DNA of 64,000 bases from Sphagnum compactum. Taxonomy: Eukaryota. The notes under the pieces are model-generated. The model worked only from the letters and a program-made list of their open reading frames with translations, was not told the DNA's origin and did not search any database. Positions 1,864 to 23,258 of the stretch are shown here, piece by piece (position 1 is the first letter of the stretch; each line of letters opens with the position of its first letter). A program made the position numbers and the translations under genes. The stretch covers positions 2,232,001 to 2,296,000 of the forward strand of contig OZ234494.1 in NCBI GenBank assembly GCA_965153455.1, in the 5' to 3' direction.

Positions 1864-2191
1864 TGTCATGACCATATGTGTGTTAGCTATAACATATAGT
1901 GTGCAATGGTAGCGAGTAATGCCTACTTAGGGTTTCTAGGTTTATTGTTAGAGGAGAGTGGCTCTTCTGGTAGGACCCACCTTCATGTTGTCAGTGGGGG
2001 TATAAAGTGTGAAAGAGGGCTCAAAGAACATAGTTCTTTGAGTTGAGCCTAGAGCGTTGGGAGTAATTGGAGTTAGTGGAGCTTCGAGCTATGGTGTCCC
2101 ATTAGCATCGGCCTAGATTCTCTAAGTGGAGTGGGCTTAGCTTAACTGTATGTGTTTGCATCACGAGTAGATTTTTCTCGTGACATTTTCA
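1864..2191 (+). repeat. Terminal repeat A1 (5' LTR-like) of the DNMT element
   Basis: About 95% identical to 18948-19287 by eye (about 14 substitutions, a 3-nt inversion, 2 indels). TGTCATGA...TCGTGACA short inverted ends. TATAAA at 2001-2006. Confidence 0.93.
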
Positions 2192-2207
2192 CTCAAAGAA
2201 CTATGTT
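2191..2207 (+). promoter_or_regulatory. Putative self-priming primer-binding site
   Basis: ACTCAAAGAACTATGTT is the exact reverse complement of 2027-2043, which lies 21-37 nt after the TATAAA. No TGG-type tRNA PBS follows the repeat. Confidence 0.55.
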
Positions 2208-3090
2208 TTTTCGGAATAGATAAACCGTGAGGGTTTTGTGATCTCACTCTCTGGTTGTGTGGCTGAATTGGGAGTGGGTGATGTCAAAAGGAGCGCCTTG
2301 GCGAGAGCTTTTCAACGCACCAAAGAATGTTGGATTTTGTTGAGCAGATCAAAAGTTATGATCATTTGAAGTTGCTAGTTTAGGGTTTGATAGTTTTTAG
2401 TGACAGTTTACCAACGACGTTAATTTCTTAGATAAGTGGAAATTTCCTTGAAGAAAGTTGCTGAAAATTGGTAAGAGTGTAGCTAGAAAATCGATCTACA
2501 ATCTTGCAAAGACATATTGTGTTTTCATTGAGCGGATTATGCGTTATGTTTGTTTTTGTGGTGATGGTTTTTTCTGGTTTGTGCACACCTAGTGCGGAAG
2601 CGCTGTCCAATTTTTAGCTAAATAACTAGGGAAGGTCATATGCTGCAATTTTGTGAAGTTGTTGCTTGAGGGCTGAATTACATCTAGGAATTGTTTTGGA
2701 TTTTTTTTTTGTGGAGCCAATTGGGAGTATTGACCTTCAAAAGATCTCAAGTTTGTGTAGATTTATGCCCACGTTTTTTTCAAGGGGTTTCGTAGGTCAT
2801 ATTTTGGCACACAAACCTTCTTTTTAGTTGAGTTTTGGAGGGAAGGAAGATCTAGTTGTCCTCTACATTCTGGTCAAAGTAGATTGGCATTTGGTGTAGG
2901 AACGGTGGAAATATGGTTGTTTGAGTGCTCGCAGCCCAATTTCGCAACTTTTGGCTATGGTGGATTAAGGATTTTGCCGGAAATCAAGCTTTTGGCTAGT
3001 GGGGAGCACATTTTTCGACTTGTTGTGGTGGGCCGGTTGGACGAGTTGAGCCGCTACTCAGCTAGGTGGTTGAGTTGAGTACTCGTTTCT

Positions 3091-5759
3091 CACTAGTAAA
3101 AAATGGTCATTTTGCGACTGGTCCATGTGACTAATTTTTAGTTGCAAGCGACATTTGCAACAAACATTTTAATAGTCGTGTTGGACAAGTCGCATTGACA
3201 CTAGTTGCAAACGACAACGAATTTTGGATGAAAGAAAAGTCAACAAAATATGCTTTTATCTTGTGACTAGTCATATACGTATTGTCGTTTGCAACTAAGA
3301 TGCGACTTTTTGGGTGAACAATGGGAACAAGTTATGTGTCGCCACGTGTCCCAACTCTTAATAATTGAAAATATTTTATTATTATTTTGAAATAATCTAA
3401 GATGTTTAATTTTTATGTTTGGATGGTTTAGATTGTGACATGTGGTGCAATAAAAATTTGCCATGTGGCATATTAATTGATATTTTCCAAATTAAATTTA
3501 AATCAATATTTAGGTATGTAGGTTGCATTAAGTACCTACCTATAGACCTACCTACCCATTTAGGCTAAACACCTATCTAGATAAGACTTATTATCTACCT
3601 AGGCCAAATACCTACTTGGGTAGGTAGGTAGAAAAATAGGTGAACAAGTTAGGGAAGTAGGTAGTTAGGTGTAAATACATGAATATTTATATTTTACTTT
3701 GGGTCAAGTCATATTTAATGACTCACCCCATATGCCCATTTATTTTCATATGTAAATGTAAGACAAAACACCTTGTTTATATATTTTTCAAGATGGGAAT
3801 GAAAGCCAAAACATATGGGATAAACTTTTTAGTTGCAAGTCGTTTATGATTAAAAATGTTCAGTTGCAAACGACTTGCAACTAAAAATTTTATCCCATAT
3901 GTTTTGATTATCATTCCCATCTTGAAAAGTACATAATTAAGTAAATAAATGACACCAACGAGTTAACTAATTAACTAATATAATTATTAATTATTTAACG
4001 AATGAAATATAGAAATTTAAATTAATAAACTTGCTAATTAATTAATTAACAACTAAACTAGAAACTAACTAATTATTTATAGTAATAATAATTAATATCT
4101 TATTATTACTGAATTTATTATATTATTATTAAATATTAATTAATTAATTAGTTAGATAAACCATAATATTATATTAATTATAATAATTTATCAACCAATT
4201 TAATTAACTAGTAATTGGCTAATATTGAAATATTTAGCTAATTATTACTAAGTAATAAATTATTATTTCGTAACCAAATAAATTAATATAATAACTGAAA
4301 TATTTAGTATTTAATTATTAATAACAATTAATTATAAATATTGACTATTAGGTTTTTTATATCTAATAATATAATTAAAACCTAGCCTAGGGTAACTATT
4401 TTATTATAATTACTCCCATTATTATTTTCATTTATATAGTTAATAATAAATATATCAGTAAATATTTGATATAAAAGTATCTTAATTCAATTATTATTGT
4501 AGCAAGTTCGTAGCCAAGGTTAACTATTTTATTATTATTATTCATTAATTCACTCATTTATTTATTTATGAAATAATACAATAAATATTATATATTTTTC
4601 CTTCAAAAATAATTTCTGCATTTGTATAATAATTTATTAGATTTCCATTCTAACTAATACAGTAATCATTATAAAATATAAAATAATAGAACTGAAAATT
4701 AGAAATATATATTAGTAAATGATTATAATCATTGAATTATTAATAATTAATATTAATAAATATCAACTATAAATTTTTAATACAAAAATTTAAAACTATA
4801 TATTAATATTTCTTAATAATTATTATATTAATCTAATAATATTTCATAATTGATTACTTATTATAATAATAACAATAATGTAATTTTTCACTAGCCTAGG
4901 TTAGCTATTTTATTATTATTATTATATGTCACTTGTTAGACTATTATGATTTATTATAATTAAGTTTTCATTTTTTTAAAAAATAAAAATAATTCGTAAT
5001 AAGTACATTAGTCATTTGAAAAAAAATTAATAATAATTTAATTATATATTAAAAATTTATAATTACTTCAATAATTATAGAATTATTTTTCTTATCATTC
5101 TAATATCATCATCATTATGATCATTATGTAACAAGATATTACTGTTTTTAAATTTTAGTTAAAGGTAATATTTAAATTTAGTTTTTATTACATGTAATTA
5201 ATATAATATTATAATATTATATTAATACAAATAATAATAAATGTCATTTTTAATAATTTTAAGAAGTATAATAAAATGGTTTGGATAAACTTATAATATG
5301 GGCACAATATATTTAACAAATATCTTATGTATAATTTTGATATACTCAAAATATATACCATTTAATGTAACCGTAATATCGAGGCCATTTATGATAATAA
5401 TAATATTTGAATACACATCTAATATGGTTGTTCATATACATTCAAATTATACATTTATAAATTCTAATACACCGAACTATATTTTTTAAAATTCACAAAA
5501 TATACCTTCATATACTTATAGGGTTACAACTAAATTGGTCACATTTGCAACTAATGGGACATAAATTGTTCTTATTGGATGAAAACTTAACTAAATGTTG
5601 TTCACATGGAAGGATGAACACCAAACTAGCTGCAAACTAGTTGCAAATATGACCAACACAAGAAATAGTTGCAAAAATGTCCAAATGTAGTTACAAATAA
5701 CTGATAGTCGCATGTAGTCGCAAAGAGATTGGTTACATTTTAGCCAATTTTTACTAGTG
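3091..5759. mobile_element. Non-autonomous CACTA (En/Spm) DNA transposon
   Basis: Starts CACTAGTAAAAAATGG and ends CCAATTTTTACTAGTG (15/16 TIR match). 3-bp TSD TCT at 3088-3090 and 5760-5762. Subterminal repeats (TAGTTGCAA, TAGTCGCA). Extremely AT-rich non-coding interior. Confidence 0.93.
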
Positions 5760-6841
5760 TCTGGTAATAAAAAGGACACGAGGTCGACGGTATTTAGTGG
5801 TGATTCAATTTGGGTACTGGGTTTGGTGATTGGGTCATCACGGAGCAGTTTGGTGGTCCTGTGGGGACCTTATCCTCCTCCATTAAGCATGGACTCAACT
5901 CCATTCGTTGTTGCGACGACTGCCATTCTACTAGTTTTTGTTCTTGCTGTAGACGATGTTGTGCGTTTCTATCCGCAACCATGCACACTGTAAGTCGACG
6001 ACTCCATCGTCCACTCTTCCCATTTCTTCTCCCAACTCGCAACTTACTTTCCTCAGAAGAAGCTGTAACACTAACAATACAAGAAGGCCAAACAAGCAAC
6101 AACGACATTATTACACCTCCTGCACTGCTAGTACTACTACTCCTAATACTCCCCAGCTTTCCACTCGAATGGTTCGTCCAGCTGCGCGGCGGAGCTACTA
6201 CATCCAATTCCAAGAAGCCACCACCAACAAATGTTTGTAAAACTTGCTGAGCATGCTGACTACAACATCCCCGAATCACCACCATTTCGCCTCTCTCCTC
6301 TTTCACTACCTCCCACAACAAAAACAACAAAACTCCTCAACCACCACCACCACCACCACTACCACAACCACAGCAGCGTCGTCGTCCCCAAAAAAAACTT
6401 CTTCTCAAAATGTCATCCCCAACTCCCCCCAAAATAAAAAAACTTGGAAGATGAGATCAAATCTAGAAAATGAATTTCAGGAATGAAAAGAGAGAGAGAG
6501 AGAGAGAGAGATCAAATTTTGCTCAAATCTGGTATCAAATTTGAAAACTTGTGTGAAGTGAGCACTAGTCAAAAAAAATTTAAGATCTGATCTAATTCAT
6601 TAGGAATTTCACTAACAATTTGGAACCGATTATGGGAATCATGGATTGAGTGACAAACAAAAGAAAAAATTTGCAAATGGAATTTGAGTGACAAAGGTCG
6701 ATCGATCGATCCAAGAGACTAAACTTTGATCGAATTTGGTCCAAATTTGAAGACTCGAGTGATGAGCACTAGGGTAATAGTAGCAGTAGTAAAGAGATGG
6801 GGGGGGGTGTCTATCTAATTCATTAGAAATTTCACTAACAT

Positions 6842-7224
6842 TTGAATGGTGGAGATGGTGGAGTTACACGTAGTGGGTTGAGGTATCGACTACCTTCCCC
6901 CACATCATCAGTTGTTGAGGAGGACGAGGTTATCGTGAATAACAAGTCTTCCATATTACCGTCTAGTATTGCGACCCCATTGATTTGGGATATGGACGAT
7001 GGTTCTGGGGCCATGAAGGGCTCAGGTGCAGTGGGCACCATCAAATTGGAAGACTTCATTCAGGAGTTTGATTCTTGGTGTGATATGCAGATGTTACGTA
7101 ACGTTGTTCTCATCCTTCTTGGCATGGAAGGGACTGTTTCAACACTTGGAGGGTCCTCCGATGGATGATTATCATGAGTTTCGGAGAGATCATGCTACTG
7201 AGATTGAGGACTGGAGGCAGCATT
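6842..7224 (+). pseudogene. Gag N-terminal part of the DNMT element, frameshifted and interrupted by the nested Gypsy
   Basis: KLEDFIQEFDSWCDMQ...LAWKGLFQHLEGPPMDDYHEFRRDHATEIEDWRQH continues as WSPSYVSITHGG at 14526 once the nested element and one TSD copy are removed. Confidence 0.7.
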
Positions 7225-8209
7225 TGACGCACTCCCAAGTTCCTAGTGGACCCACTTGAGGGTCCAAGTATGTGGCAATGCGGAAGGAGTTGGAACTTGG
7301 AACACGCTCCCGACTTCTAGCACTAGAGGGGGGGTGAGAGGGGTGTGCTAGAAGTCCCGGGATAGACTAGGAAGAATTGACAAGCTTATTCACTCACACG
7401 GGCCTGCACGCAACCCACACAAAGTGGTTAGTGCATAGTTGGAGCACCTTTGGTGCTAGGACGAGCCACGGGCAACACGGACACACAAGACTCACCACGG
7501 CCCGGACTTGGGGGAAGCCACCCCTTCCCCCTTATAGTATACTCTGCAGCTCTCCACGGAGGCTACATCCAAATGGCTATTTTTCTCGGGACTCCCGAGT
7601 GGGAGTCCCGAAATCGCGCCAAATGGGACTCCCGCGACTTTGGAGCCCCATAACTTTGCGAGCAGACCTCGGATCACAATGCGGTCTGAAGCAAAGTTGT
7701 AGATCTCGTCGAGACCTTTCCAACGGTATGTCGCACGTCCTCTGCATCCTAGTATTTCGGGTCGATTCCCGACTTTTAGTGGTCGGGAGTCAAAACTGGC
7801 AGACTCCCGGGAATTCGACTCCCGACCCTTCTTTTGGCCATAACTTGTGTTTCAGATGTCCAAATGAGCAATGCGAGCTCACTTTAGGTATCTACGCTTC
7901 AATAGCTTTCCAATGATATAAAGAACGTCACAAGACATTGAGGTTTGACACCTGCCATTGCTCTCTGAAGTTTCGGGAGTCCACCGGGACTCCATCTCCC
8001 AAAGTGGGAGTTGCCTTGGGAGTGTGAGTGTTCACTCCCTCACACTCCCTCACACTTTCTTACACTCCCGGGAATGTGATGTGACTCTCGGGCTTTCTCT
8101 TGCCTTGACTCCCGGGCTTCCTCTTGGTTTAACTCCCGGGCTTCCTCTTGGCCCGCAACCTTATAACCCCTTTGCCTTTGGTCCCGGGCCCAAAGCTGGG
8201 GTTGCGACA
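7225..8209 (-). repeat. 3' LTR of the chromovirus
   Basis: TGACGCAC...TTGCGACA. Matches 13536-14520 with only two differences spotted (7960/14271, 8198/14509). Confidence 0.97.
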
Positions 8210-8223
8210 CTCTCCCCCACTAG
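8210..8223 (-). promoter_or_regulatory. Polypurine tract
   Basis: Minus strand CTAGTGGGGGAGAG immediately before the 3' LTR. Confidence 0.8.
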
Positions 8224-8995
8224 AAGAAGAGGTCAATGTCCTCATTGACACTTAGAATTTCTTTCAACAATTGCAATTGCTTTCTTTTGGATCCTTGGCC
8301 ATCAAATGCCGACTCCTTGCGGCCGGACCTTGCCTCAAGCTAACTTAGGCGTCCCCAAGCTTCCAACACTCTCTTGGCAAGTCCAAGGGTGTCTCAATAG
8401 AAACCCTCCATTGCTTCATCAAAAGACCTAACTAGCCTAATTGACGAAGCCCTCATTTGGGAGGCCATTTTCCAACCTTCCCCTCATGAGGAACTCAAGC
8501 CAAGCCTAATCTTGACCTAAGCTACTTGACATGACTCCTTTCCCAATCTTGCGCCTTGATCACAACAATCAAGCCTTTCCTAAAGGTATGCTTATCAAGG
8601 TACGAGAAGCGACGTTTAGGCTTTGCAAAAGCCTAAGTCCCAAGATACGCGATTATAGTACACGAACGGGGTCATGACTTCCCGCGTTGGCCGCCACTAC
8701 CAACCAACCCCTTGGGATGCACTTTGGGCATGTGCACGTCCCCGCAAGCTCACCTTGCTTGCCTCCTCTTTTGGGACCAAAATTTCTCTTAGCCCCCAAG
8801 TAGGAGTCCGATTTTGATTTGGGCTTACGCAAGAAAGTTCCATTTGTCCATGCCACTTGACAACGCCCCCCTTTCTAACATACTATTATGTTTGTGATGC
8901 AATCTCTCGAAAGTCTTTAGCCTTTATTTCACTTACAACTTGATTTGGTACATTTGTGTAACTTTCCACCCGTTAAAAGAAAGGTGATGTCCTCA

Positions 8996-10153
8996 TCACG
9001 CTCTATGTTTCCTTTGCTTTTTAGCCGGTCTATTGTGGAATTCTTCTATGGCTTCTTGGGCATGTTCCATGTCGGACTCATTCACCCAAGATGCCTCTAT
9101 TGGATGGTATCCTTTCCACTTGACCAAGTACTCCCGCTCTCGCCCCTTTAGTTGCCTTGACTTGAGCACGGCCTCCACTTCAAATTCCGGTTCATTATGA
9201 ACCAAATCCGGAGGGGGCCTTGAATTGTGCTCTCGCTCGGGCCTTGAGGCATCACGGACGACCGGCTTCAAAAGCGAAACATGAAATATGGGATGAACCT
9301 TGAGATTTTCCGGTAGTTCTAACTTGTAAGTGTCGGGAAATTTCTTTTCCAACACTTTGAATGGACCCGCATATGGGCCCAAGAACTTATGGCTCAATCC
9401 TTCGGGCAACCGGAAGTTCTTGATGTTCAACCATACTTCATCCCCTTCTTCAAAATTCACCTCTCGACGGGACTTGTCCGCAAAACTCTTGTACCTTTTA
9501 TGCGCCTTCTCAAGATTGGCCTTGGCCATCTCCCACAAGCGCCGCCTTTCTTCATCAAGTTGTGTGACCATGGGCACTTCCTCACTTGCATCACTCGGGG
9601 GTTGTCCCACCCAAGTTGTGGGCACAATTGGTGACTTGCCCGTCACCATTTGAAATGGGGTGGCCCCCGTTGCCGAATGCTCCGAATTGTTGTAACAAAA
9701 TTCGGCCAACTCCAAATGGTCCACCCAATCTTGTTGATCCGCCGCCACATAATTCCTTAGGAATTGTTGGATCACCAAGTTCACCCTCTCGGTTTGTCCA
9801 TTCGTTTGGGGCCGAAAGGAAGTGCTCATCTTGAGCTCGGACCCCATGCGCTTCCACAAGGCTCTCCAAAACTTGCTTGTGAACTTGGGGTCTCGGTCCG
9901 ACACAATGTCCTTTGGGAGGCCATGATGCTTGAACACGTGGGTGAAGAACAACCTTCCCGTCTCTTGGGCCGTTGCACTATCCTTGGTAGGAATGAAATG
10001 TGCCATCTTGCTAAACCGATCCACCACCACCATGATCGCATCAAACCCCTTTGATGGTGGCAAACTCACCATGAAATCCATGGAGACACTTTCCCACGGC
10101 CCTTCCGGAATGGGTAATGGTCGCAACAATCCCGCTTGCTTTTTATTGAGTGC
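8996..10153 (-). CDS. Integrase core, GPY/F motif and chromodomain (pol C-terminus, out of frame with the upstream pol)
   Basis: [18 protein letters not shown] and QTERVN (DDE motifs); GPYAGPFKV; chromodomain [11 protein letters not shown]...EYLVKWKGY...ASWV. Confidence 0.93.
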
Positions 10154-13100
10154 CGGTTTTGTTGGCAAGTCAAGCAAGTCTTCACGTATTCCTCCGCATC
10201 CTCCTTCAAGTTGGGCCAATAATAGGACTTCTTGAGGAATGTGGTGGTGCGCTTTGCACCACCGTGACCCGCAAGGGGCCCATCATGGCATTCCTTCAAA
10301 AGCACATCTCTTAGCCCCCCTTTTGGAACATAGAGCCGACTTTGCTTATACCACAAAAGTCCATCTCGCAAGTGGAAGTGGGACTTGATCCCCTTTTGAA
10401 TGTCTTGCTTCCTTTCCTTGGCAAATTCATCCCGGCGGCTCCCAAGTCGAACATCCTTTTGGAACTTTGTTTCCCCCACATACACCACTTTGAGTTGGTG
10501 TTTCCGACTCAATGCATCCGGCACCACATTTTCCTTCTCGGGCTTATGCCGAATGTCCACATTGAACAAAGCCAATGTGTCTTGCCATCTCACTTGTTTT
10601 GATGACAACTTTGGTTGAGTTGCGAAGTACTTCAAGGTGACATTGTCGGTCCACACCACCACATCTTTGGAACCTATGTAGTGGCCCCAAGTCTTGAGAC
10701 AATGTATCACGGCCCACATTTCCTTCTCATGGGTCGGCCACCTTCGCTCCGTCTCATTCAACTTCTTGCTTTCGAAGGCCACCGGCCTTCCATCTTGCAC
10801 TAGGACTCCTCCTATGGCAAAGTCGGAAGCATCGGAATGGATCTCAAAGTCCTTGTCAAAATCGGGCAACTTCAACACGGGCGCCTTCACCAAAATGCCT
10901 TTCAAAGTCTCAAAGGCCTCATTGCATGCCTCCTCCCATTCATAAGTCCCGGATGACTTCTTCAAAAGGTTTGTCAAAGGTGTGGCTATCTTTGCAAAGT
11001 TCTTGATGAACTTGCGATAATAAGAAGCCAATCCCAAAAAGGACCTTAAGGCGGGAACGGACTTAGGCGGTTCCCAATCCAAGATTGCCTTCACCTTGTG
11101 GTCATCCATTTTCAAACCTTCTTGGGTGATCCTATGCCCAAGGAAGTCCACCTCCGAGACTCCAAACTCACATTTCTCGAACTTGGCATACAACTTGTTT
11201 TCTTTTAACCTTTGGAACACCTTACGAAGGTGTTCCGCATGCTCCTCCAAGGAGCTACTATAGATCAAAATGTCGTCTATGTAGACGACCACAAAATCAT
11301 CAAGCCACTCTCGGAAAATGTCATTCATGAGGGTGCAAAATGTGGCGGGTGCATTGGTGAGCCCAAATGGCATCACCAAGAATTCATATGAACCATACCT
11401 TGTGCGGCAAGCGGTTTTCTCTTCATCCCCTTGTGCAATTCGAATTTGGTAGTATCCCGAACGTAGGTCAATCCTACTAAACACTTTGGCTCCCGAAAGC
11501 CGATCAAACAAGTCATCAATCCGAGGCAATGGGTACCGATTCTTCACCGTCACCTTGTTGAGGGCTCTATAATCTACGCACATCCTCAAAGTCCCATCCT
11601 TCTTGTGAACAAAAAGGACGGGCGCCCCATATGGTGACTTGCTAGGCTTGATGTATCCCTTTGCAAGGAGTTCTTCGAGTTGAACCTTGAGCTCTTTTAA
11701 CTCCTCATGACTCATTCGATACGGGGCCTTGGCGGGAGGTGCCACTCCCGGGACCACCTCTATGGCATGGTCCACTTGTCTTCTCGGGGGCAACTCATCG
11801 GGCAATTCTTCGGGCATCACATCTGGGAATTCCTCTAACACTTGCTTGATGCACTTGTGGGGGCTCACCACCTTGGTGGCCTCCTTTGGTTCAAACTCAT
11901 CCAAAACCCGCATCACACATAACATGCCATAGCCTCCCCCACATTCTTTTTCCAAGTTCTTTCCCAACATCAAGTGGATGGTGGTCCCACCCACACTAGG
12001 CACTTCATGTGCCTTCACTCGCACAATCCCATTCTTGGATGGGATCCTAATTAACCTATTGTGCCCTTCTACGAGCACATTGTTACGTGTGATGAACTCC
12101 ATTCCCAAAATGCAATCCATGCCCCCTAAGGTGGAAACTAACAAATCCACCTTGCCTTTCCAATTCCCCAATTGGAAAGGCACATCTCTTGCTTGCAACT
12201 TGGTGGGATGGGGAATCCCATCCGCAAAGTGCACCTCTATGGGTGCTTTGAGCTCCTCCAACCGGAGCTCCATTCTTTGGGCACTTTCTTGGGTTATGAA
12301 GTTGTGGGAAGCGCCTGTGTCCAAAAGACATAAAACTTCCCGCTTAGAAACTTTCCCTTTTAAGAAAATAAGGCGGTTACATTCACCTTGGACTAGGTTG
12401 GCGGAAAGGGCACTTACCTTAGGAGCCCCCTTCCCCGATTTGGGTTTGGGGCAATCCTTGGAGTAATGCCCCACTTCATTACAATTGAAGCATACTCCCT
12501 TGGGTTTCCCACTAGCATCTCCCTTGGGTTGGCTCACTTTGAAAGGAGCCCCCTTCTTGATAAAATTTCCCTTGGGTTTAAAACCCGAGCCTTGGAATTG
12601 TTTAAGCTTGTCCCCTTTTGAGGTGTCTTGGCCTCGGTTCCATTCCCCTTCATGGCGTGCCTTCTTATGAGGGAACTTGTTATCCCTTTTGAATCCGGAC
12701 TTCTCACCACACCCAACATCCGAAAAGCCTTCCACTTTCATGATGGCTTCGGTTAGTGAGGTGGGCCAATTCTCCTCAAGTTTGCGTTTGGCCCAAGTGG
12801 GAAGTCCCATCACAAAGTGGCACACCCGGTCTAACTCATGCATATGCCGAATCTCAAGCATGAGTTCGGAGTAAGCCCTCACATATTGGCGCAAGTTGTC
12901 ATTGCTCCCATTCTCAAGGTCACGGAGTTTGCATCTTGAAATGTAGTCGGAATTCTTGGGAATGAATTCCAACTCAATACGCTCCTTGAAGAATTCCCAT
13001 GTGTAGCCATGGGTCTTCCCTTCTTCTTGCCTCACCGTCCTCCACCATGTGGAGGCATAGCCCTTCAAATAGGATTGGGCAAGTTCCACGGCCGAATGCC

Positions 13101-13485
13101 GACCAACCTTGGCGGCATGAAGGTAGTCCTCCATTTCCGCAAGCCAAGCATCCACAACCTTCCGATCCCGGGCCCCATCAAAGTTCCCGGGCCTAGCGGG
13201 CTTGAACCCCACACTTTTGGATGAACCTCCCTTAAGGGCCTCAACCAATTCACTAAAATCGGGCCTATTCATTTTGAGTAAGACCTCTAATTGTTCCGGG
13301 GTGAAGAGCACCGCATTTGATTGCTCCCCTTCATTTTCATCGTCCTCATGGCTATCACGGTCTTCCTCACCTTCGGAAACATTTTGTTCTTCCCCACTCA
13401 TGGCTTGGGGTGCAACATCCGGGTCTTGGGTGGGTTCTTCCACCACGATCTCTTGGACTAGCTTGCGGGTCTTCCTTGGTGCCAT
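10066..13485 (-). CDS. Gag-Pol polyprotein (Gag, CCHC knuckle, protease, RT, RNase H, integrase Zn finger)
   Basis: Likely start MAPRK at 13485. [35 protein letters not shown]...GH...CLTC. Frameshifts into the integrase frame near 10153. Confidence 0.96.
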
Positions 13486-13521
13486 CGGGACTCTCCAATA
13501 AGTGGATCGAGCTCTCCCCGA

Positions 13522-13533
13522 GCTCTGATACCA
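13522..13533 (-). promoter_or_regulatory. tRNA-iMet primer binding site
   Basis: Minus strand TGGTATCAGAGC, 2 nt inside the 5' LTR boundary. Confidence 0.95.
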
Positions 13534-13535
13534 AG

Positions 13536-14520
13536 TGACGCACTCCCAAGTTCCTAGTGGACCCACTTGAGGGTCCAAGTATGTGGCAATGCGGAAGGAG
13601 TTGGAACTTGGAACACGCTCCCGACTTCTAGCACTAGAGGGGGGGTGAGAGGGGTGTGCTAGAAGTCCCGGGATAGACTAGGAAGAATTGACAAGCTTAT
13701 TCACTCACACGGGCCTGCACGCAACCCACACAAAGTGGTTAGTGCATAGTTGGAGCACCTTTGGTGCTAGGACGAGCCACGGGCAACACGGACACACAAG
13801 ACTCACCACGGCCCGGACTTGGGGGAAGCCACCCCTTCCCCCTTATAGTATACTCTGCAGCTCTCCACGGAGGCTACATCCAAATGGCTATTTTTCTCGG
13901 GACTCCCGAGTGGGAGTCCCGAAATCGCGCCAAATGGGACTCCCGCGACTTTGGAGCCCCATAACTTTGCGAGCAGACCTCGGATCACAATGCGGTCTGA
14001 AGCAAAGTTGTAGATCTCGTCGAGACCTTTCCAACGGTATGTCGCACGTCCTCTGCATCCTAGTATTTCGGGTCGATTCCCGACTTTTAGTGGTCGGGAG
14101 TCAAAACTGGCAGACTCCCGGGAATTCGACTCCCGACCCTTCTTTTGGCCATAACTTGTGTTTCAGATGTCCAAATGAGCAATGCGAGCTCACTTTAGGT
14201 ATCTACGCTTCAATAGCTTTCCAATGATATAAAGAACGTCACAAGACATTGAGGTTTGACACCTGCCATTACTCTCTGAAGTTTCGGGAGTCCACCGGGA
14301 CTCCATCTCCCAAAGTGGGAGTTGCCTTGGGAGTGTGAGTGTTCACTCCCTCACACTCCCTCACACTTTCTTACACTCCCGGGAATGTGATGTGACTCTC
14401 GGGCTTTCTCTTGCCTTGACTCCCGGGCTTCCTCTTGGTTTAACTCCCGGGCTTCCTCTTGGCCCGCAACCTTATAACCCCTTTGCCTTTGGTCCCGGGC
14501 CCAAAGCTAGGGTTGCGACA
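13536..14520 (-). repeat. 5' LTR of the chromovirus
   Basis: Near-identical to 7225-8209 and adjacent to the PBS. Confidence 0.97.
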
Positions 14521-14525
14521 GCATT

Positions 14526-16143
14526 GGTCTCCATCCTATGTATCTATTACTCACGGTGGTGTTGTTAGTGGTGGTACTACTACACCGTCTACTCCTAGTA
14601 CGAGCACACAAGTTGTTCCCCCACCTCTGTTTAACCCTATCACGGGAGTTCTTTTTGAGGCTGAAGAAGAACTACCAGGGGGTGAAGACGGAGAAGTTGA
14701 AGAGTCTTTAAGAATTTGAACGAAGACTGGTGAGAGTCTTCGTGAGGCATACACTCGTATGCGATGGTTAATTGCAGTTACCCAGGGGGTGACGGAGGCT
14801 CAGGCAGTCCAATTTTGGTATGGGATTCTAGACAAGGAGTTGCGACAGAGAGCACGCGGGTGACTCTCATGAGTGACGATTCTCCCACATTGGCCCATGT
14901 GTTTGCTTTTTCTGAGAAGATAGAGCTTAACATGGTGGAGGAGAGGGTGGTGACATCTGGATTCAATAGGGATATAGTTACTACTTCTCGTGGACAACAG
15001 TCCACCTCACAACCTCATACTGGTGGAGGTGGGAGTCGTGGAGGTCAGGTACGACCTCAGTCAGGTTCTGGAGGGACGGGTGCACAAAGACCGTTGCCTT
15101 CATTCGTTAGTCAACAGCAGGGACAATGTTGTTGGACATGTGGTGGTGCTCATATTCGGAGGGATTGTCCACAGGAGAGTGGTGGACGGACTTTGGCTGA
15201 TGGATCTCAGTCGACACAAGTTCAATGTGATAACTGTGGCCGGGTCGGCCACCCTCGTGAGCGTTGTTTTAACCTTTACCCAGAATTGAGATTAGGTCGT
15301 GGTGGAGCGGCTCAAAGAGGTCGTGGTGGTAGAGGTGGTAGAGGTGGTGGGGGTGGTAGAGGTACACCAACGGTCAGGGCACCTCCCGTGATCACTCCTC
15401 CGCTTACGACAGAGGCAGCTATGGCTGCTAGGATTGAGCAGTTGGAGCAAAGGCTTGCTACCATGGCAAGTTTCCAGCATCGATCACATTCAAGAGGTGA
15501 GGCTCCCACATCTTATGGGGGAGATGATCTCTTTTATATGGCTAGTGTAGCAAAAATTGAGGCGTCCATTGCAGTGACGAGAGGCGTCACTCAAGCCTCG
15601 GAGCCACGTGGGGCAACTGTGGAGTTGGATCCACAGAAGGGTGAAGCTGGTAGACAGGCCAGGCTTCCCCAATCATTCTTGTTGTCTGAAGTGGTTAGGA
15701 CTCCTTCCATGGTTCCTACACCACCTATTGAGCCAACAGTGGGGCCAACAACATCGACATCACATGTAGTGGACACGGATGTATCATTGAGTGCAATGTC
15801 GCGGATGGTGACTTCAGTGTTGGGATCTCCAACATTTTCGGCTAATGATTTGATGGCGTCAGGAGTTGACTTAACTCGTGTATTTCGACTAGCAGCCACA
15901 TTGTGTGAACATGGGAGTGTTGTTGCTACAAGTGTCGAGGTGTGTGAGGGTGTTGATGTGGGGCAACGTGTGGCGGGGGATGTTGTTGTGGAGCAACTCG
16001 TGGTATCAGGTGTGGATAGTCCTTGGCAGGAGGCGACAGCTAAGATGGATGCATTACCAGCTCGATCAGCCATTAATCGTGAGAGGCTTACACCTGGTGT
16101 GTGTGTGTGTTGGATAATCGGAATGGTATTTTCCGGTTGGTGA
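14526..16143 (+). pseudogene. Gag C-terminal part of the DNMT element, with two zinc knuckles and an RGG-rich region
   Basis: GESLREAYTRM gag-like motif; CWTCGGAHIRRDC and CDNCGRVGHPRERC; RGRGGRGGRGG. Several frameshifts, the last in a (GT)n run near 16100. Confidence 0.8.
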
Positions 16144-16560
16144 GTCCTACGGGCCAGGTGTATAGACCAAATCGGGTTTTGTTGGATTCTGGTGCCCAAC
16201 CCTTGATGTTGGGGAAGGCAGCATGTATTGGTTTGGGTATTCGAAGGTCAAAGCTTGAACCGTGCCCATTCCAAATTTAGACATCACTTGGTGGAGCCAG
16301 TGGTAGGTCTAACTTCATGACACGTGAGAGATTGTCGGTGCAAATGAAACCGAATCATGTGACAAATAGCTCTAAGTTAGAAGTGACTGCTGTTGTTACA
16401 GCAGCTAAATCGTATGATGTACTAGTTGGAGGTGCCGTGTTGTATCCGGTGGGTTTTTAGATGGATTAGTGGACAAAGACAACAACTTATCAACCTGGTT
16501 GGCAGTCTGGGGATGGACGGATGAGCCAGGTGCCTGTGAGATTTATTTCTGGGGTTCGAC
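16110..16560 (+). pseudogene. Retroviral-type aspartic protease
   Basis: RVLLDSGAQPLMLGK (DSG at 16185-16193) and SYDVLVGG, in the same frame as the downstream DNMT-RT ORF. In-frame TAG stops at 16278, 16458 and 16467. Confidence 0.85.
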
Positions 16561-16899
16561 CAGGAGGGTCTCCCCCAGAGGTGTTGGCATCAGTTGCTGG
16601 TTTTAGTGGAGTGGTCACTTGGCTAGGTGACTTGTTGCAGGGCAACATTTTAGCTATTGACACTTCGGTCTACAAGGATATAGAGGAGGTTTCTAGCTTT
16701 GTTGCAGCAGGGTCCTCCTCATTGGATGTTCCACTTTGGCGTTCGAGTGGGGTGTTACGGCAAGATGCCGATCGTTTGGTATCACAAGCTTAGCGTGAGG
16801 CTTTTGTGCCTGTGGAGGAGGAGGAGGTTCCACAACGGACTCCTATTTCTGGTCCTGTTGGGTTGTCTCCATTGGATACTACACCCATTGCGTGGGAAT

Positions 16900-17870
16900 A
16901 TCCTTCCGAGGGTATTTGCGTGTTGGATCTATTTGGTGGGATCAGCACTGGTTTGGCAACAGTGCTTCAAGCGGGTATTCTAGTTCGGAAGTACCTTTAC
17001 GTGGAGAGAGATGAGACCGCGAGGAGGGTTTCATCGCGCCATCTTGCATTATTGAAGCGGCGATATCCTGAGTTGTTGCCGAGGTCGGCTATTCGAGGAT
17101 ATCAGCGAGCTTTGCCATCAGACATTGCATTGTTGGGGGCGGAAGACCTTGCGAGAGTTGGTCCTATTAATTTGGTGATTGCTGGATGGCCATGCCAGGT
17201 TCATATTCGGGCTGGTCATGGTGAGGGATTACGTGACCCTCAATCTCGTATGTTTTGGGAGATGTTGCGGGTGTCATGCCATCTTCAGACACATCAGGCA
17301 CGTGTTCCCGCGTACATTCTGGAGAATGTACCTTTGTTGGGTGATACTAGGTCTCATGTGATGGCAAGTGTACACCAAATCCGGTCTTGGATTGGACCAA
17401 CGGTTTTATTGGATGCAGCGAGGGTTGGTTCGCGTGCTCATCATCCCCGATTGTGGTGGACGAACTTGTTACCAAGTGAGGTGTTGAAACGGGCATATGA
17501 GACAGTACCACGATCTTCTCACCTCATAGTGGATAGTATCTTAGATATTGGGCGACGTTCTCAGGTGGTGAAAGTTGTTGATAGGTCACCCATGGAAGTG
17601 GTGAACCGAGTGGGACAGCCTAGGATGGCGTTACCCACATTTGTCAGTTTTCCAGCATCACATGCCTATAGAGAGGGTGGTCCAGGGCTTGTATGGGATA
17701 GTTGTTTGCAGCAATTAGTGGAGCCCAATGCCGATGAGAGAGAGCGTGTAATGGGGTTTCCTACAGGAGTGACATTTGTCCCTTCCATTTCCAAGGCTTC
17801 ACGTCGACAAGTGTTGGGTCAAGCCATGGACAATTGTTTGACTTGGATTGTTAGCCTTGGTATGGCTGAG
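16900..17870 (+). CDS. C5 cytosine DNA methyltransferase domain (DNMT3-like, non-permuted) within the retroelement pol ORF 16806-18983
   Basis: Ordered motifs: I VLDLFGGISTG, II YVERD, IV IAGWPCQ (PC at 17190-17195), VI YILENV, VIII AHHPRLWWTN, IX ERERVMGFPTGVT, X RRQVLGQAM. Confidence 0.92.
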
Positions 17871-18149
17871 CAGCGTCGGCTCAGAGCCACATTTGTAGTA
17901 GTTACACCTCTTGTGAGCTCGCTGTCCACCGTGACGGTAGAGGCATCGACTGGGGGCGAGGAAAGTTGTACTTTTCATCCTTGGAGTACATGGGATGTGT
18001 TGGGAAAGCATGTGAAGGTTGTGGCCCATGCTGTTGGAGGAGTTTGTTGCTCCATTGGTGTTCCATTGGGTGACTTGGAGGAGCGTGTGGTTTTTCCCAA
18101 GGTTTTTGCGTCGCAATCCATGGCATCGTCCTCTTCCTCTAGTGTGTGT

Positions 18150-18935
18150 ATCGAGGAGACTTGGGAGTCTTTGATGGGGCCCAAGCTAATAGGAGGAGAG
18201 AGGCGACGGTTAATGCAATTCCTAAGAGCTTACAGGATTTGTTTTACCTTTAGTATGAACGAGTTGGGTGCTTTGATTGGACTTGGTATACGGATTGAGT
18301 TGGCTAGTGACACGCCAATCTTCCGTCATCCTTATAGATATAGTGATATGGAGAGGGACTTGATTCGGAGTCGGACGTTGGATCTATTGGAGGCTGGATT
18401 AGTGGAGTTGTCGCATGGTGAATACGCATCAGCCATTGTCATGCCTGCCAAAAAGGATGTACATGGTAACTACACGGATAGGCGGATGTGTGGAGACTAC
18501 CGTCCTATCAATCGGCAGACTAAGTCCGATAAGTATGCCATGCCTACACTTGAAGAGATCTTTGATGTTGTGGGACATGCGAAGGTTTTTAATACACTTG
18601 ATCTTCGAGCAGGGTACCATCAGTTGCCGATTCGAGACGAGGACAAGGCCAAGACCACATTTTGGGGCGTCAACTCTCACGGGAAGGATTGTTTGTATCA
18701 GTGGAAGTTCTTACCCTTTGGGTTGAAGAATGCGCCTGCCGAGTTTCAACGTGTGATGGATAGGATCTTAGCAGGGTTGGATTTTGTTCGGTGTTATATC
18801 GATGATATTGTGGTATATAGTGATACCGTGGAAGAACACCAAATTCATCTACAAATTGTGTTTGAGCGGTTGAAGGCTCATGGTCTTCGTCTACATCCTG
18901 GGAAGTGTAAGTTCTTCCAGGAGAGTGTGGAGTAT
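18150..18935 (+). CDS. Ty3/Gypsy-type reverse transcriptase, truncated after ESVEY (RNase H and integrase missing)
   Basis: PYRYS, RMCGDYRPIN, LDLRAGYHQ, LPFGLKNAPAEFQR, CYIDD (YIDD at 18795-18806), KCKF. In frame with the methyltransferase. Confidence 0.95.
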
Positions 18936-18947
18936 TCGCACGATAAC

Positions 18948-19401
18948 TGTCATGACCATATGTGTGTTAGCTATAACATATAGTGTGCTATGGTAGCGAG
19001 TAATGCCTACTTAGGGTTTCTAGGTTTAGGGTTAGAGGAGAGTGGCTCTTCTGGTAGGACCCACCCTCATGTTGTGAGTGGGGGTATAAAGTGTGAGAGA
19101 GGGCTCAAAGAACTATGTTCTTTGAGTTGAGCCTAGAGCGTTGGGAGTAGTTGGAGTTAGTGGAGCTTCAAGCTATGGTGTCCCGTTAGCATCAGCCTAG
19201 ATTTCTCTGAGTGGAGTGGGCTTGGCTTGACTGTATGTGTTTGCATCATGAGTTTTATGATAGTAGATTTTTCTCGTGACATTTTCAATTGTGGTACACA
19301 TGTATTTGTGTATGCTCTCGTCTATGTTATGTGTTTGTGTGTGTATGTGAGTATGGTATGTCAGCGATGTATGTTGTATGACGATATGTATTCGCACGAC
19401 A
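18948..19401 (+). repeat. 3' terminal region of the DNMT element: repeat A2 (18948-19287) plus GT-rich segment B (19288-19401)
   Basis: A2 matches A1. B has no counterpart at the 5' end, but its last 14 nt recur at 18932-18945. Confidence 0.88.
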
Positions 19402-22064
19402 ACTCCCACTTTGAGAGTTGGAATCCCAATGGACTCTCAAATTTTCAAAGAATAATTTTAGAGGTCAATACTCATTGGTTTGAAGAGTTTCTTATACCAT
19501 TGGAAAGCTCTTGAAATGTAGATGTCTAAAATGGGTTCACATGTCTCATTTAAGTACTTAAAACACAAGTTATGGCCGAAAAAAAAGGTCGAAAGTCAAA
19601 GTGCCAATTTGACTCCCGACCATTAAAAGTTGAGAATCGCCCTGATTTACTTGTGTATAGGTGACGTGCTATATATAGGTGGAAGATCTCGATGAGGGCT
19701 ACAACTTTGCTTCAAACCTCACCTCAATCAAAAGTTAGCACAAAAAATTATGGGCCTCTAAAGTTGGAAAAGTCTCGATTTCAAGAATTTCAAAACTCTC
19801 GACTTGGGAGTCTTGGGACAAAATGACATTTGGGTGCAACCCCCATGGCCAGGCATAAAGAATATTATAAGGGGGAAGGTGGTGGCTTCCCCCAAGTCCA
19901 GGCCATGGTGAGTCTTATGAGTTCGTGTATGTTCGTGATTCGTCTGTGCACCAAAAATGTTCCAACTATGCACTAACCAACTTGCTATTTGGTTTGTGCA
20001 GGTCTATGTGAATAATTGACTCGCTTGTCACTTGTCCTAATCCCCATCCCAGAATTCCAACACACCCTTCTACCCCCCGAAGTGTTGCAAGCTAGGGAAC
20101 GTACCTCAACTCTTTTTTCCGTTATTTTCACCTTTGCACTCATAGTTGAGTCTGTCAAAGAATTTGGGGGTGCATCAATGCACATTAATGTGTCAAGGAC
20201 TTTTCATATGATTTTACACATGAATTATCATGTGACAATCAATGCACATAATTAAAATTATGACCAAACTTTTATGAAATTCAACTACCAAATAAATTAC
20301 CAAACTTAACCGTTAAATAATTACATAAATAATAATGTAATTACATTAGGTTACATGGTCATTGCTGATGTCAAAATAGAAGGCATGGTTTTCCTTTGTA
20401 CCCAAAAATAAAATAAAATAATGTGTTTATTGTCAACAACTTGTATCAGATCTATTATTGAACTCAAAATAGTTTTAAAACACAAAAAAGAGGTGTGAAA
20501 AATCAGATCTATAGTTGAATTCCCTACAAGGAAAAAAAAAGGTGTGGGTTAAAAAACCCTTATGGCTTAACGTACAAAACATTGTCAAGAAAAAACATTG
20601 GACCCCCCTCCCCTTAACATGAAATCCCCAAAAGGACTCTCAAATGCAAAGCAATTTCTCAAGTAAACGGCCGCATAATTCAATATTTGAAAAAAAATGA
20701 CCATTGCCGTATGTCTATGTCTATCTCCCAATTTCATTGAACATCCTTTACATTCAGGATTTTTAATTAGTTAATAAAATAGGTACATATTACATACCAA
20801 AAAAAGAAAAAAAAAACACGTAAGTGCCCAAGGATTTTTTTCATTTTTACTTTATTCCCAACATGTTCCCTAGGTTCCTAATGTATTCCCCAAGGATGTT
20901 CCCAATAACACCTCACTTTCATCCCATATGTTTTGTCCAAAGGCCTCCCCTTCACACCTATATAGGTGGGCCAAGGGGGGAGGCACTCTATAGTTTCAAC
21001 TCTTTTTTTTTGCAATGGGCCAATCAAATTGGCTCATTACCAAAAAACAAAAGTTGGATTCATAAATACCCCCAGTTTATAATATTACATAAATTGTGGA
21101 CAACATCACCAATGGAGTTTTTCTTTGGTGATGAGATTTTGAAAATTCCCTGTGTTTTCTAGAACAAAAGCTTGCTAAAATGTTGTGATTTTTCTTTCCA
21201 AAGATAAATTTGTCATAGTTTGAGACAGTTTTTAGTCTTGGAGCATTCTTTTAACAATTCTCTCCAGTTCCAATAATATTTTACAAACTTGTTGCCAATT
21301 AATACCTACAAAAATATGAGAAAAACGAAAAAAATGACCAAAAAAAATTAAATGAAAAATGGAAAATTAATTTAAAATAGAGAAAAAGTTTGAAGCGGCG
21401 GCCACACTGCGGCGTTCTTTTGTGTTTCCCTTTTCTCTGTTTTTTGCGGGAAAGGGGAAAACTAAGGCTTAAATTTATGTTTTTTTAATCCTTTGTTTTA
21501 ACGCGTATGCTTTTTTACTTTTTTTCCGTTTTACTGTCGTCGTCTCCCGTTCGAAGAAGCTCGCGGAGCGCGCTATCGGGTGCTTACCGAAGGCGACAGC
21601 AACAGCGGCAGCGTCGTCGTCGTTGCGGTGCACTCGCTGTGCGGGTGTAGCTATCGGTGCACTCGTTTTGCAGCGTGATCTTCTGCGCAGAAGCGAGAAT
21701 CCGCCAATTTTGCGGCAATATTTTGATCTTCTTTTTTGAAAGCCCAGTGCAACAATGGAGGCACACGAAAGATCCAAAAATTAAAATTGGTGTGTTTTCT
21801 GATCATAGCTCCTCCTCTTCCTCCTCATCAATATTTCTGTAGTGAGCTTTTATCGATGATGTGCATCGCCCAGAGTTGTGATCTAGTACTTGGATATTGT
21901 TTCTTTCTGTGAAGAGCTCCGTCGATTACTGGTTTCGTGAGCGTGAGAGACGAGTGGCTAGGTTCCCAGGCGCAGTAAGCTAAATTACGTGCTTTCAACA
22001 GAAAAGTGAGGAGGTTTTTTTTCTTCTTTCTTTTTCGGTCGGAGATTGGAACTTGCAATCTCAG

Positions 22065-23258
22065 ATGGAGTCAGTGTCTACGTCCATGCGTGATTCGCTC
22101 CGGCAATGTCAATTCCTTTCGGATTTGAAAAACTCTTGTGAACATGCTGTACAAGAATTTTACATTGCGGTGAAGCAGCGAGCATTGAAGTCTTCTCTGT
22201 TAGGCGTTCCTTTGCTGCCGCGAAGAAACGGTCGCTTCTCATCTGTCGTGAACGGGATCAAAACGTGGCCGAGACGAGCCAGCCGCGGATCGCGAGAACA
22301 GTCGTCGCCAAACGCGCAACCGGCATCCTCTCCGGCAAGACGTTATCGTCATTGTCGCTCGTTTCCCGCGCCTGGACTCACGTTCGCGTCCTGCAACGTT
22401 ACACAGTCGCGCAGTAAGTACAGCCCTGACATCCTGAAGGCTTCAAGGCCGACCTCGTTACTTGGAGATGGCGAGGAGGCATTGCCTATCGGCACGTTAC
22501 CTGCATCACAGAACAAGACTTCTCTTAACATCGCGGTCAGTTCCGATTATGATAAGTTTTGGACCGACGTCATGCCCGATCTCCATGATTTTGTGAGGAA
22601 GGAAGAGTTTGATATATACATGAAGGAGGGAATACAGGAGTTTCACAAGAGGAGTAATTGCTATTCAGCACCAGAGATGCCGCAGGGAGATGCCTGGGTT
22701 GAGGATCTGCCGGAATTCGTAGGAATTCTGACCTCTTCTTATACTACTTCAGAAACCGAGCAGGAAGGCGCCGGAGATTCATCGGTCGTGACACAGTCGG
22801 AGAACGAAACTGCAAGCTCTTCTGCAGCATCGGAAGAGCCGGCCGGAGTTCAGCGATTTCGCCGTCGGTTCAGGGGAATCCGGCTGAAAGACAACAAATG
22901 GATCTCGGAAATCAGGCCTTCGCGCGCGAAGAGGACAGTGTGGCTGGGCACGTACGCGACGGAAGAAGAAGCGGCCCGCGCATTTGACGCCGGTATATTT
23001 TATTACCGAAAATCTAACATTCCCTACAATTTTTCCGATTCTCCTGAAGTGCTTCCGGAAGTGAATCAAGGACCGCAGGAGGTGAGTGCCAAATTCGTGA
23101 AGACAGAGGCAAGAAGAAATGCACAGAGAGCGCGGCCATCGACGGATTCTTCACATCAACTCCTCACGACTGCAATTCAAGAGCAAGCCTCCCCATCATC
23201 GGGATCGTCCAGGCAATGGTTCAGAGGATGCAGGGGAAGGAAGTCATATTCCCAATGA
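22065..23258 (+). CDS. AP2/ERF-domain transcription factor
   Basis: Open frame from the ATG at 22065, with AP2 domain RFRGIRLKDNKWISEIRP...VWLGTYATEEEAARAFDAG...YNFS (about 22865-23035). The true 3' end could be spliced. Confidence 0.88.
   Translation: MESVSTSMRDSLRQCQFLSDLKNSCEHAVQEFYIAVKQRALKSSLLGVPLLPRRNGRFSSVVNGIKTWPRRASRGSREQSSPNAQPASSPARRYRHCRSFPAPGLTFASCNVTQSRSKYSPDILKASRPTSLLGDGEEALPIGTLPASQNKTSLNIAVSSDYDKFWTDVMPDLHDFVRKEEFDIYMKEGIQEFHKRSNCYSAPEMPQGDAWVEDLPEFVGILTSSYTTSETEQEGAGDSSVVTQSENETASSSAASEEPAGVQRFRRRFRGIRLKDNKWISEIRPSRAKRTVWLGTYATEEEAARAFDAGIFYYRKSNIPYNFSDSPEVLPEVNQGPQEVSAKFVKTEARRNAQRARPSTDSSHQLLTTAIQEQASPSSGSSRQWFRGCRGRKSYSQ

Follow-up and report, generated by a model that had tools for sequence, protein, structure and literature searches.

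Here, we describe a decayed retrotransposon of Sphagnum compactum in which the coding sequences of a Ty3/gypsy element lie between split direct repeats. The element occupies positions 1864-19401 of the window, i.e. the whole stretch of 64,000 nucleotides that was analysed (contig OZ234494.1, positions 2,232,001 to 2,296,000), and its repeats and genes are all on the + strand. On the left, it begins with repeat A1 (1864-2191), which starts with TGTCA, the left integration end. On the right, it closes with a second copy of A, A2 (18948-19287), and with repeat B2 (19288-19401), which ends with CACGACA, the right integration end; a remnant of a further copy of B, B1 (18932-18945), precedes A2. The preliminary description of this locus had stated that A1 matches A2 alone and that the target-site duplication (TSD) lies beyond B. 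This is correct: in a self-comparison of the window, A1 has its sole match at 18948-19287 (341 columns, 91.5% identity, E 2e-137), and ACTC stands on either side of the element, at 1860-1863 and at 19402-19405. The left ACTC is part of a host long terminal repeat (LTR) of the chromovirus type and, when one of the two ACTC copies is taken out, the flanking sequences align continuously through the insertion site with the reverse complement of a related LTR at 7225-8209. Thus, the 4-bp TSD is real and the whole 17.5 kb represents one insertion.

A1 has a TATA box at 2001, from the distance of which a transcript start at ~2032 is predicted. The first 12 nt of this RNA (2032-2043) would be a self-primer, and its predicted binding site (2191-2202) directly follows A1; in the predicted fold of 2032-2215, these two stretches pair in both the minimum free energy and the centroid structure (z -2.3 for the whole fold). 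The 5' leader (2203-6991) contains two insertions and is followed by a decayed gag with zinc knuckles (6992-16160, start ~6992), which is similar to the Marchantia proteins P0001-P0004 and is split by a nested chromovirus. An aspartic protease with the motif LLDSGAQ was recognised in translation and has stops inside (16160-16480, boundaries approximate). The open reading frame (ORF) upstream of the reverse transcriptase (RT), which the preliminary description had passed over, encodes a C5 cytosine DNA methylase domain (16908-17870; PF00145, E 1e-5) with the PCQ and ENV motifs. The RT itself is of the Ty3/gypsy type (18290-18935, start approximate; PF00078, E 8e-30) and is cut after VEY, where other copies read on as LGHVIYP.

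The B1 remnant consists of the last 14 nt of B with one C/T difference and is separated from A2 by AC; apart from B2 itself, B has one match in the window that reaches its 3' end, 12 identical nt at 18932-18943. Taken alone, this remnant is not significant (E 0.32), and GTAT, the four nucleotides at its start, also serves as RT codons. It is confirmed by contigs of the public run X1 that contain more of B upstream of 18932 and by the full B1 of intact copies. Relative to the complete copy L036, 2,576 bp are missing from the window copy between two GTAT motifs, a deletion with microhomology that took the end of the RT, RNase H, the integrase, the PHD finger, the polypurine tract (PPT) and most of B1, and B1 is therefore a remnant here.

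Other copies were counted among metagenome loci and contigs of public runs. A search with a methylase profile retrieved 80 of the 207 confirmed metagenome loci, and contigs of four public runs were aligned to window positions 18500-19460, with the best-supported rows considered. Among the matches listed, the RT runs on past 18935 in three of the four runs. At least nine contigs of run X1 have B sequence upstream of 18932; flanks are diverse before 18948 (at least 15 contigs, X4) and after 19401 (at least 13 contigs, X1), and the primer site directly follows the end of A in at least one contig (X10). The copies fall into two families. Family 1 (~90% nucleotide identity to the window) includes the complete copies L036 and L047 and the decayed window copy; family 2, the methylase of which is ~38% identical, includes the complete copies L052, L054, L061 and L067. 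Both have the order A1…PPT-B1-nn-A2-B2, and a B1-A2-B2 type layout is also present in the 3' halves L010, L045, L058 and L072; the loci L002, L070 and L057 and other short ones end before the termini. Among 18 distinct right ends in normal orientation (the inverted-B sites L009/L011 and L064/L065 excluded), 11 have B1-A2-B2, six end at a B that directly follows the PPT, and in one a truncated interior is fused to the start of B. None of 25 distinct left ends has a B end preceding A and none has the alternative permutation A-B-A-internal-B; in the two families, B never follows an A copy with a primer site behind it, and no copy with ordinary A+B LTRs at both ends was found. Where both ends are visible (n=11), the TSD is an exact 4-bp repeat in eight copies, differs by one C/T change in two, and is lacking in one (L054). 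The expectations of the preliminary description that B stands before and after A2 and never after A1, and that TSDs are 4 bp, are thus borne out, and we conclude from the compared sequences that the A1…B1-A2-B2 layout is family-wide and not a local accident.

Three further observations concern these copies. The B ends of family 2 (e.g. L052, 14430-14473) consist of a 15-nt tandem unit, each unit closing with CACGACA. In L009 and L011 (~6200-6450), an inverted PPT-B1 end forms the left side, and its junction with A lies close to the A end, immediately ahead of the primer site. L002 and L003 are retrotransposon contigs in bacterial genome bins and are probably eukaryotic contamination; among virus contigs, we found no such element, as the window ORF gave no confirmed match there and a single methylase match was weak.

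In both families, a G-rich PPT adjoins B1 upstream, and the 12 nt directly after A1 are complementary to a stretch located 31-32 nt past the TATA box. Primer and primer site are spelled differently in the two families, but their complementarity is kept. B1 and A2 are separated by an internal palindrome that resembles an integrase attachment (att) site (18942-18951). In the window it reads GATA-AC-TGTC, and in most copies GACA-GC-TGTC. Its spacer has 2 nt in all 17 junctions (GC in eight, AC in four, GT in three, AT in one and TC in one). Because all spacers except TC, i.e. 16 of 17, are GC or products of its deamination at cytosine, the original palindrome was GACA-GC-TGTC. The AC before A2 in the window, which the preliminary description took as the native spacer, is probably a deaminated GC, and with GC as the original its likeness to the TSD is due to chance. 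GACA-GC-TGTC is also found ~100-240 nt after a G-run PPT in the distant loci L003, L041, L051 and L081. As a separate observation, the predicted transcript start in A lies within a perfect 10-bp hairpin (2020-2042 and 19104-19126); the 3-nt loop is inverted between the repeats, ATA in A1 (the majority state in the public runs) and TAT in A2, and family 2 lacks the hairpin.

The enzymes of the intact copies are those of a Ty3/gypsy element. The complete copies L036 and L052 have 34 ORFs with a length of 90 aa or more, and a Pfam scan of these detected methylase, RT, RNase H, H2C2, rve and PHD domains and no tyrosine recombinase. In both families, the integrase zinc finger, the D, D and E motifs and then the PHD motifs follow in order, with gaps where copies have decayed; the question raised earlier, whether pol ends in a DDE integrase or in a tyrosine recombinase, is thus answered in favor of a DDE integrase with a PHD finger. 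The protease of family 2 matches gag-asp_proteas below the curated Pfam cut-off. The named relatives, with identities of 63-89%, belong to Marchantia, Calypogeia and Sphagnum, and those at 85-88% RT identity carry rve. In an RT tree built with a quick method and without reference lineages, families 1 and 2, L041, L051, L003 and L081 form one group of 36 rows (support 97) with algal RT-RNase H-methylase-integrase proteins, and this group, which includes the Coleochaete scutata protein P0039, is apart from the chromovirus nested in the window. The methylase lies between RNase H and integrase in algal-type members (L002, L003, L073, L081 and L083) and between protease and RT in bryophyte-type members (L036 and L052), and this shifted position may mean that the domain was relocated, or that it was captured more than once, within one RT group.

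Measured against the features that define Ty3/gypsy elements, the order gag, protease, RT, RNase H, integrase is present in intact relatives and incomplete in the window by deletion of RNase H and integrase. The TG…CA ends and the 4-bp TSD fit the 4-6 bp typical of the group, and the predicted self-primer site and the PPT stand in the expected places after the 5' and before the 3' repeat. Two complete collinear LTRs are lacking, since the 5' end has A only and the 3' end has B-A-B; a PHD finger, and no chromodomain, follows the integrase, which sets the element apart from chromoviruses. On this basis, we classify it as Gypsy by descent, outside the tyrosine-recombinase groups and not a canonical LTR element.

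We suggest that the decayed copy in the window belongs to a Ty3/gypsy clade of the green lineage, a clade in which the real LTR is B-gc-A and the att site of the integrase has moved inside this LTR, an interpretation that we consider likely. As read from its members, the domain order of the clade is gag-protease-DNA methylase-RT-RNase H-integrase-PHD. The starting points of the model are seen in the sequence: the PPT before B1, the 12-nt complement of the predicted RNA 5' end after A1, and GACA-GC-TGTC between B and A. The standard scheme of LTR reverse transcription is well established, and the cDNA predicted from it, with a self-primed minus strand and a PPT-primed plus strand, would be the linear molecule (B-gc-A)-primer site-internal-PPT-(B-gc-A), the tips of which would carry no att ends. 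The DDE integrase would then assemble on the left-LTR palindrome and cut after CA on each strand, resulting in two 2-nt overhangs that would resemble processed retroviral ends and would be inserted with a 4-bp stagger. The free cDNA tips, i.e. the end of A and the start of B, would be joined head to tail either before insertion, giving a circle, or after insertion by break repair. The product would be TSD-A1-internal-B1-gc-A2-B2-TSD. Possibly, the left palindrome is always chosen because the second strand transfer would at once leave it in a stable duplex, a state that the right one would reach much later. Copies of the form A-internal-B, which end at B1, could arise from 1-LTR circles, by annealing repair of a break, or by later recombination between B1 and B2. 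The earlier proposal of integration from a circle cut at an internal CA-ac-TG junction is retained insofar as the ends appear to derive from an internal CA-nn-TG junction, with CA-GC-TG as the ancestral form; its covalent circle is one of two possible routes of tip joining, and a circle with two equal sites would also yield A-B-A-internal-B. With none of 25 left ends of that form, random cutting of a 2-LTR circle is ruled out as a full explanation. We also rejected A alone as the LTR, which an TCGTGACA of its own near the end of A had suggested, because no A end in the compared copies of the two families is followed by host flank.

The A2-B2 joint (19286-19289), at which the predicted right cDNA tip is fused to the predicted left tip, places the base that precedes the primer site next to the base that follows the PPT. 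The two copies of B in one element of family 2 share 18 private non-deamination variants, compared to a mean of 5.7 in permutations, and 1 of 5040 pairings reaches 18; A1 and A2 share private variants in the same way (1 of 24 pairings in each family). The private variants that B1 and B2 of an element have in common indicate that B2 is recopied in each cycle. L064 has an inversion with breaks exactly at the end of A2 and 15 nt into B, and in L032/L039 an RT fragment is fused to the start of B. Because these rearranged breaks coincide with the predicted cDNA tips, we count them in favor of the joining of free tips.

The alternative that survives best is that the A2-B2 joint is carried in the RNA, with a transcript that covers the whole of B2, and is copied anew by template switches as in PAT/Ngaro or by a B fragment that primes on a second RNA; the integrase would still cut the palindrome and no free tips would be joined. 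Since the other permutation is absent from the 25 left ends, the integrase would have to seize the left site before the right one unless RNA serves as the template of the joint, and a templated route would be expected to give a single, fixed permutation. The joint is also nearly always exact, with no bases gained or lost in 10 of 11 (2 nt are missing in L072, and the joint of L054 carries a substitution), and the Ngaro/PAT model, as far as it is set out in PMC6681497, likewise predicts that A1 equals A2 and B1 equals B2 at insertion. By contrast, the joint matches the PPT-defined start and the primer-defined end to the base in two families, although a templated route needs neither, and in L064 and L032 the two tips are joined elsewhere. 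Altogether, we regard a joint carried in RNA as unlikely, though deserving serious consideration.

Much less survives of the idea that this is a PAT/Ngaro-like tyrosine-recombinase element, or one mobilised in trans by such an enzyme, with a TSD that is merely apparent. The order of the repeats is indeed that of PAT, Ngaro and VIPER in the part of the account in PMC6681497 that bears on it, and the AC spacer in the window equals the first two letters of its TSD. However, the ORFs of at least 90 aa in two complete copies encode an rve integrase and no tyrosine recombinase, the closest grouping of the RT is with rve-bearing proteins of the Gypsy type, the TSDs vary by site and bear no resemblance to the junction, and the AC match is lost in other copies. 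A crossover by a tyrosine recombinase at a shared ACT core (CA-AC-TG in the copy, ACTC in the target) was rejected in the same manner, because other copies have GC and TSDs unrelated to it. We hold a tyrosine-recombinase element to be very improbable and largely refuted. Finally, an accident at this locus, i.e. an ordinary A+B LTR element that lost its 5' B or a tandem insertion, is practically negligible: the copy is heavily rearranged, with three nested insertions, the 2.6-kb deletion and a faint B1, but the complete copies refute this explanation, with the layout recurring in independent insertions of two families, A1 followed by the primer site and never by B, and the same junctions in public runs.

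Several points weigh against integration from the internal palindrome followed by tip joining. Everything in the model beyond the sequence signals is inferred. For a product of host end-joining, the joint is very exact. A 2-LTR circle has two equal palindromes, yet one permutation is observed, and an extra rule of asymmetry is needed. In family 1, the sharing of private variants between B1 and B2 (three, compared to a mean of 0.75; 6 of 24 pairings reach this value) is not significant. The break at the end of A in L023 is ambiguous and may be a simple deletion, L054 has no TSD, and B1 of L061 is one 15-nt tandem unit shorter than its B2. The contigs of L073 and L083 contain no PPT-palindrome. 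Moreover, the loci used for comparison are metagenome assemblies and possibly chimeric.

The window contains further features. The chromovirus Gypsy that splits gag (7225-14520, - strand) is young, with 985-bp LTRs that are 99.8% identical and a GCATT TSD; it encodes gag, protease, RT, RNase H, integrase and a chromodomain, and its LTR has ~72% similarity to the host LTR that was the target of the outer element. Of the two insertions in the leader, both absent from relatives, the one at 3091-5759 is CACTA-like and non-coding, with CACTAGTAAAAA inverted ends, a TCT TSD and a very AT-rich core, while the other (5870-6845; 976 bp) has no TSD and contains ACC and GA microsatellites. Outside the element, at 21984-23258 (+), a 424-aa open frame has a weak AP2 domain match (E 3e-6, under the Pfam cut-off).

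Parts of the proposed mechanism have counterparts in known systems. In IS3/IS911, a DDE enzyme cuts two abutted ends with a short spacer between them; these are DNA elements in which the transposase makes the junction, while here the junction would be templated through RNA. The primer of Tf1 is 11 nt. In self-primed Tf1/Sushi and Tcn1 chromoviruses, as characterised in the relevant part of PMC6317226, the primer site is complementary to the 5' end of the element's own RNA and no tRNA is used, as is predicted here; the same source predicts self-priming for the plant Tcn1 and TAR lineages. Those elements have ordinary paired LTRs, whereas the clade described here has a PHD finger and a methylase. 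The integrases of foamy virus and HIV-1 are reported, in the sections of PMC1180852 and PMC1905944 that concern it, to cut the internal palindrome of a 2-LTR junction, giving processed ends. In these viruses, the palindrome is formed by the joining of tips (PMC1180852, PMC1905944); here, it is stored in the LTR with a 2-nt spacer, separate from the tip joint, and appears to be the sole route. With PAT/Ngaro/VIPER, the clade shares the split direct repeats A1…B1-A2-B2 and A and B pairs that are near-identical at insertion, and it differs from them, as portrayed in the pertinent passages of PMC6681497, in its DDE integrase, protease, PPT, TG/CA ends and 4-bp TSDs and in the lack of a tyrosine recombinase.

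The closest precedent is KnitGypsy-Dnmt3 of Klebsormidium nitens (de Mendoza et al. 2018). The legend to Fig. 4 of that paper gives it DIRS-type repeats together with Gypsy domains, and the arrangement, A-coding-B-A-B, is termed "the same as that of a DIRS retrotransposon" (PMC5890265). The repeat order given in the preliminary description is thus not new for a Gypsy element (PMC5890265). Compared by description, both elements combine Gypsy domains with DIRS-type repeats and carry a cytosine methyltransferase in pol; TSD, palindrome, primer and mechanism, which are given here, do not feature in the portion of PMC5890265 that deals with the element, and there the layout is left unexplained. KnitGypsy-Dnmt3 is presented in those parts as specific to the K. 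nitens lineage (PMC5890265), and within the searched literature its name occurs in this one paper. No K. nitens sequence was among the named matches of our protein searches. While the layout has this one prior mention, a palindromic internal att site, a tip-to-tip joint and a one-sided choice of site have no description in the searchable literature, a body outside which lie subscription journals, Repbase, theses and bioRxiv supplements. Judging from sequence, the clade is a mechanistically new variant of Ty3/gypsy, its mechanism being the one proposed above.

We lean, with some reserve, toward a more general view in which an old Ty3/gypsy clade that extends from green algae to liverworts and mosses abandoned integration at the cDNA tips, cuts an att palindrome inside its LTR instead, and depends on tip joining at each transposition. 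Unlike retroviruses and ordinary retrotransposons, such elements would, it appears, require the joining of their cDNA tips for each jump. For annotation, one implication is that LTR finders that need two full TG…CA LTRs, as described in the relevant section of PMC6317226, would miss or mis-delimit such elements. Protein sets of bryophytes list the methylase ORFs of these elements as ordinary or hypothetical genes. Concerning evolution, the split-repeat layout, taken as a mark of tyrosine recombinases, would be shown to be able to arise in a DDE-integrase element by relocation of the att site, and the clade would have converged on the PAT/Ngaro layout without a recombinase. Productive use of a circle junction by retroviral integrase is an old and disputed question, and 2-LTR circles are usually called dead ends. 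Because the clade seems to depend on a substrate that resembles a circle junction, its defined 10-bp palindrome lends itself to a direct biochemical test and, if our interpretation is true, the clade would be a natural system in which an integrase of the retroviral type routinely uses such a substrate.

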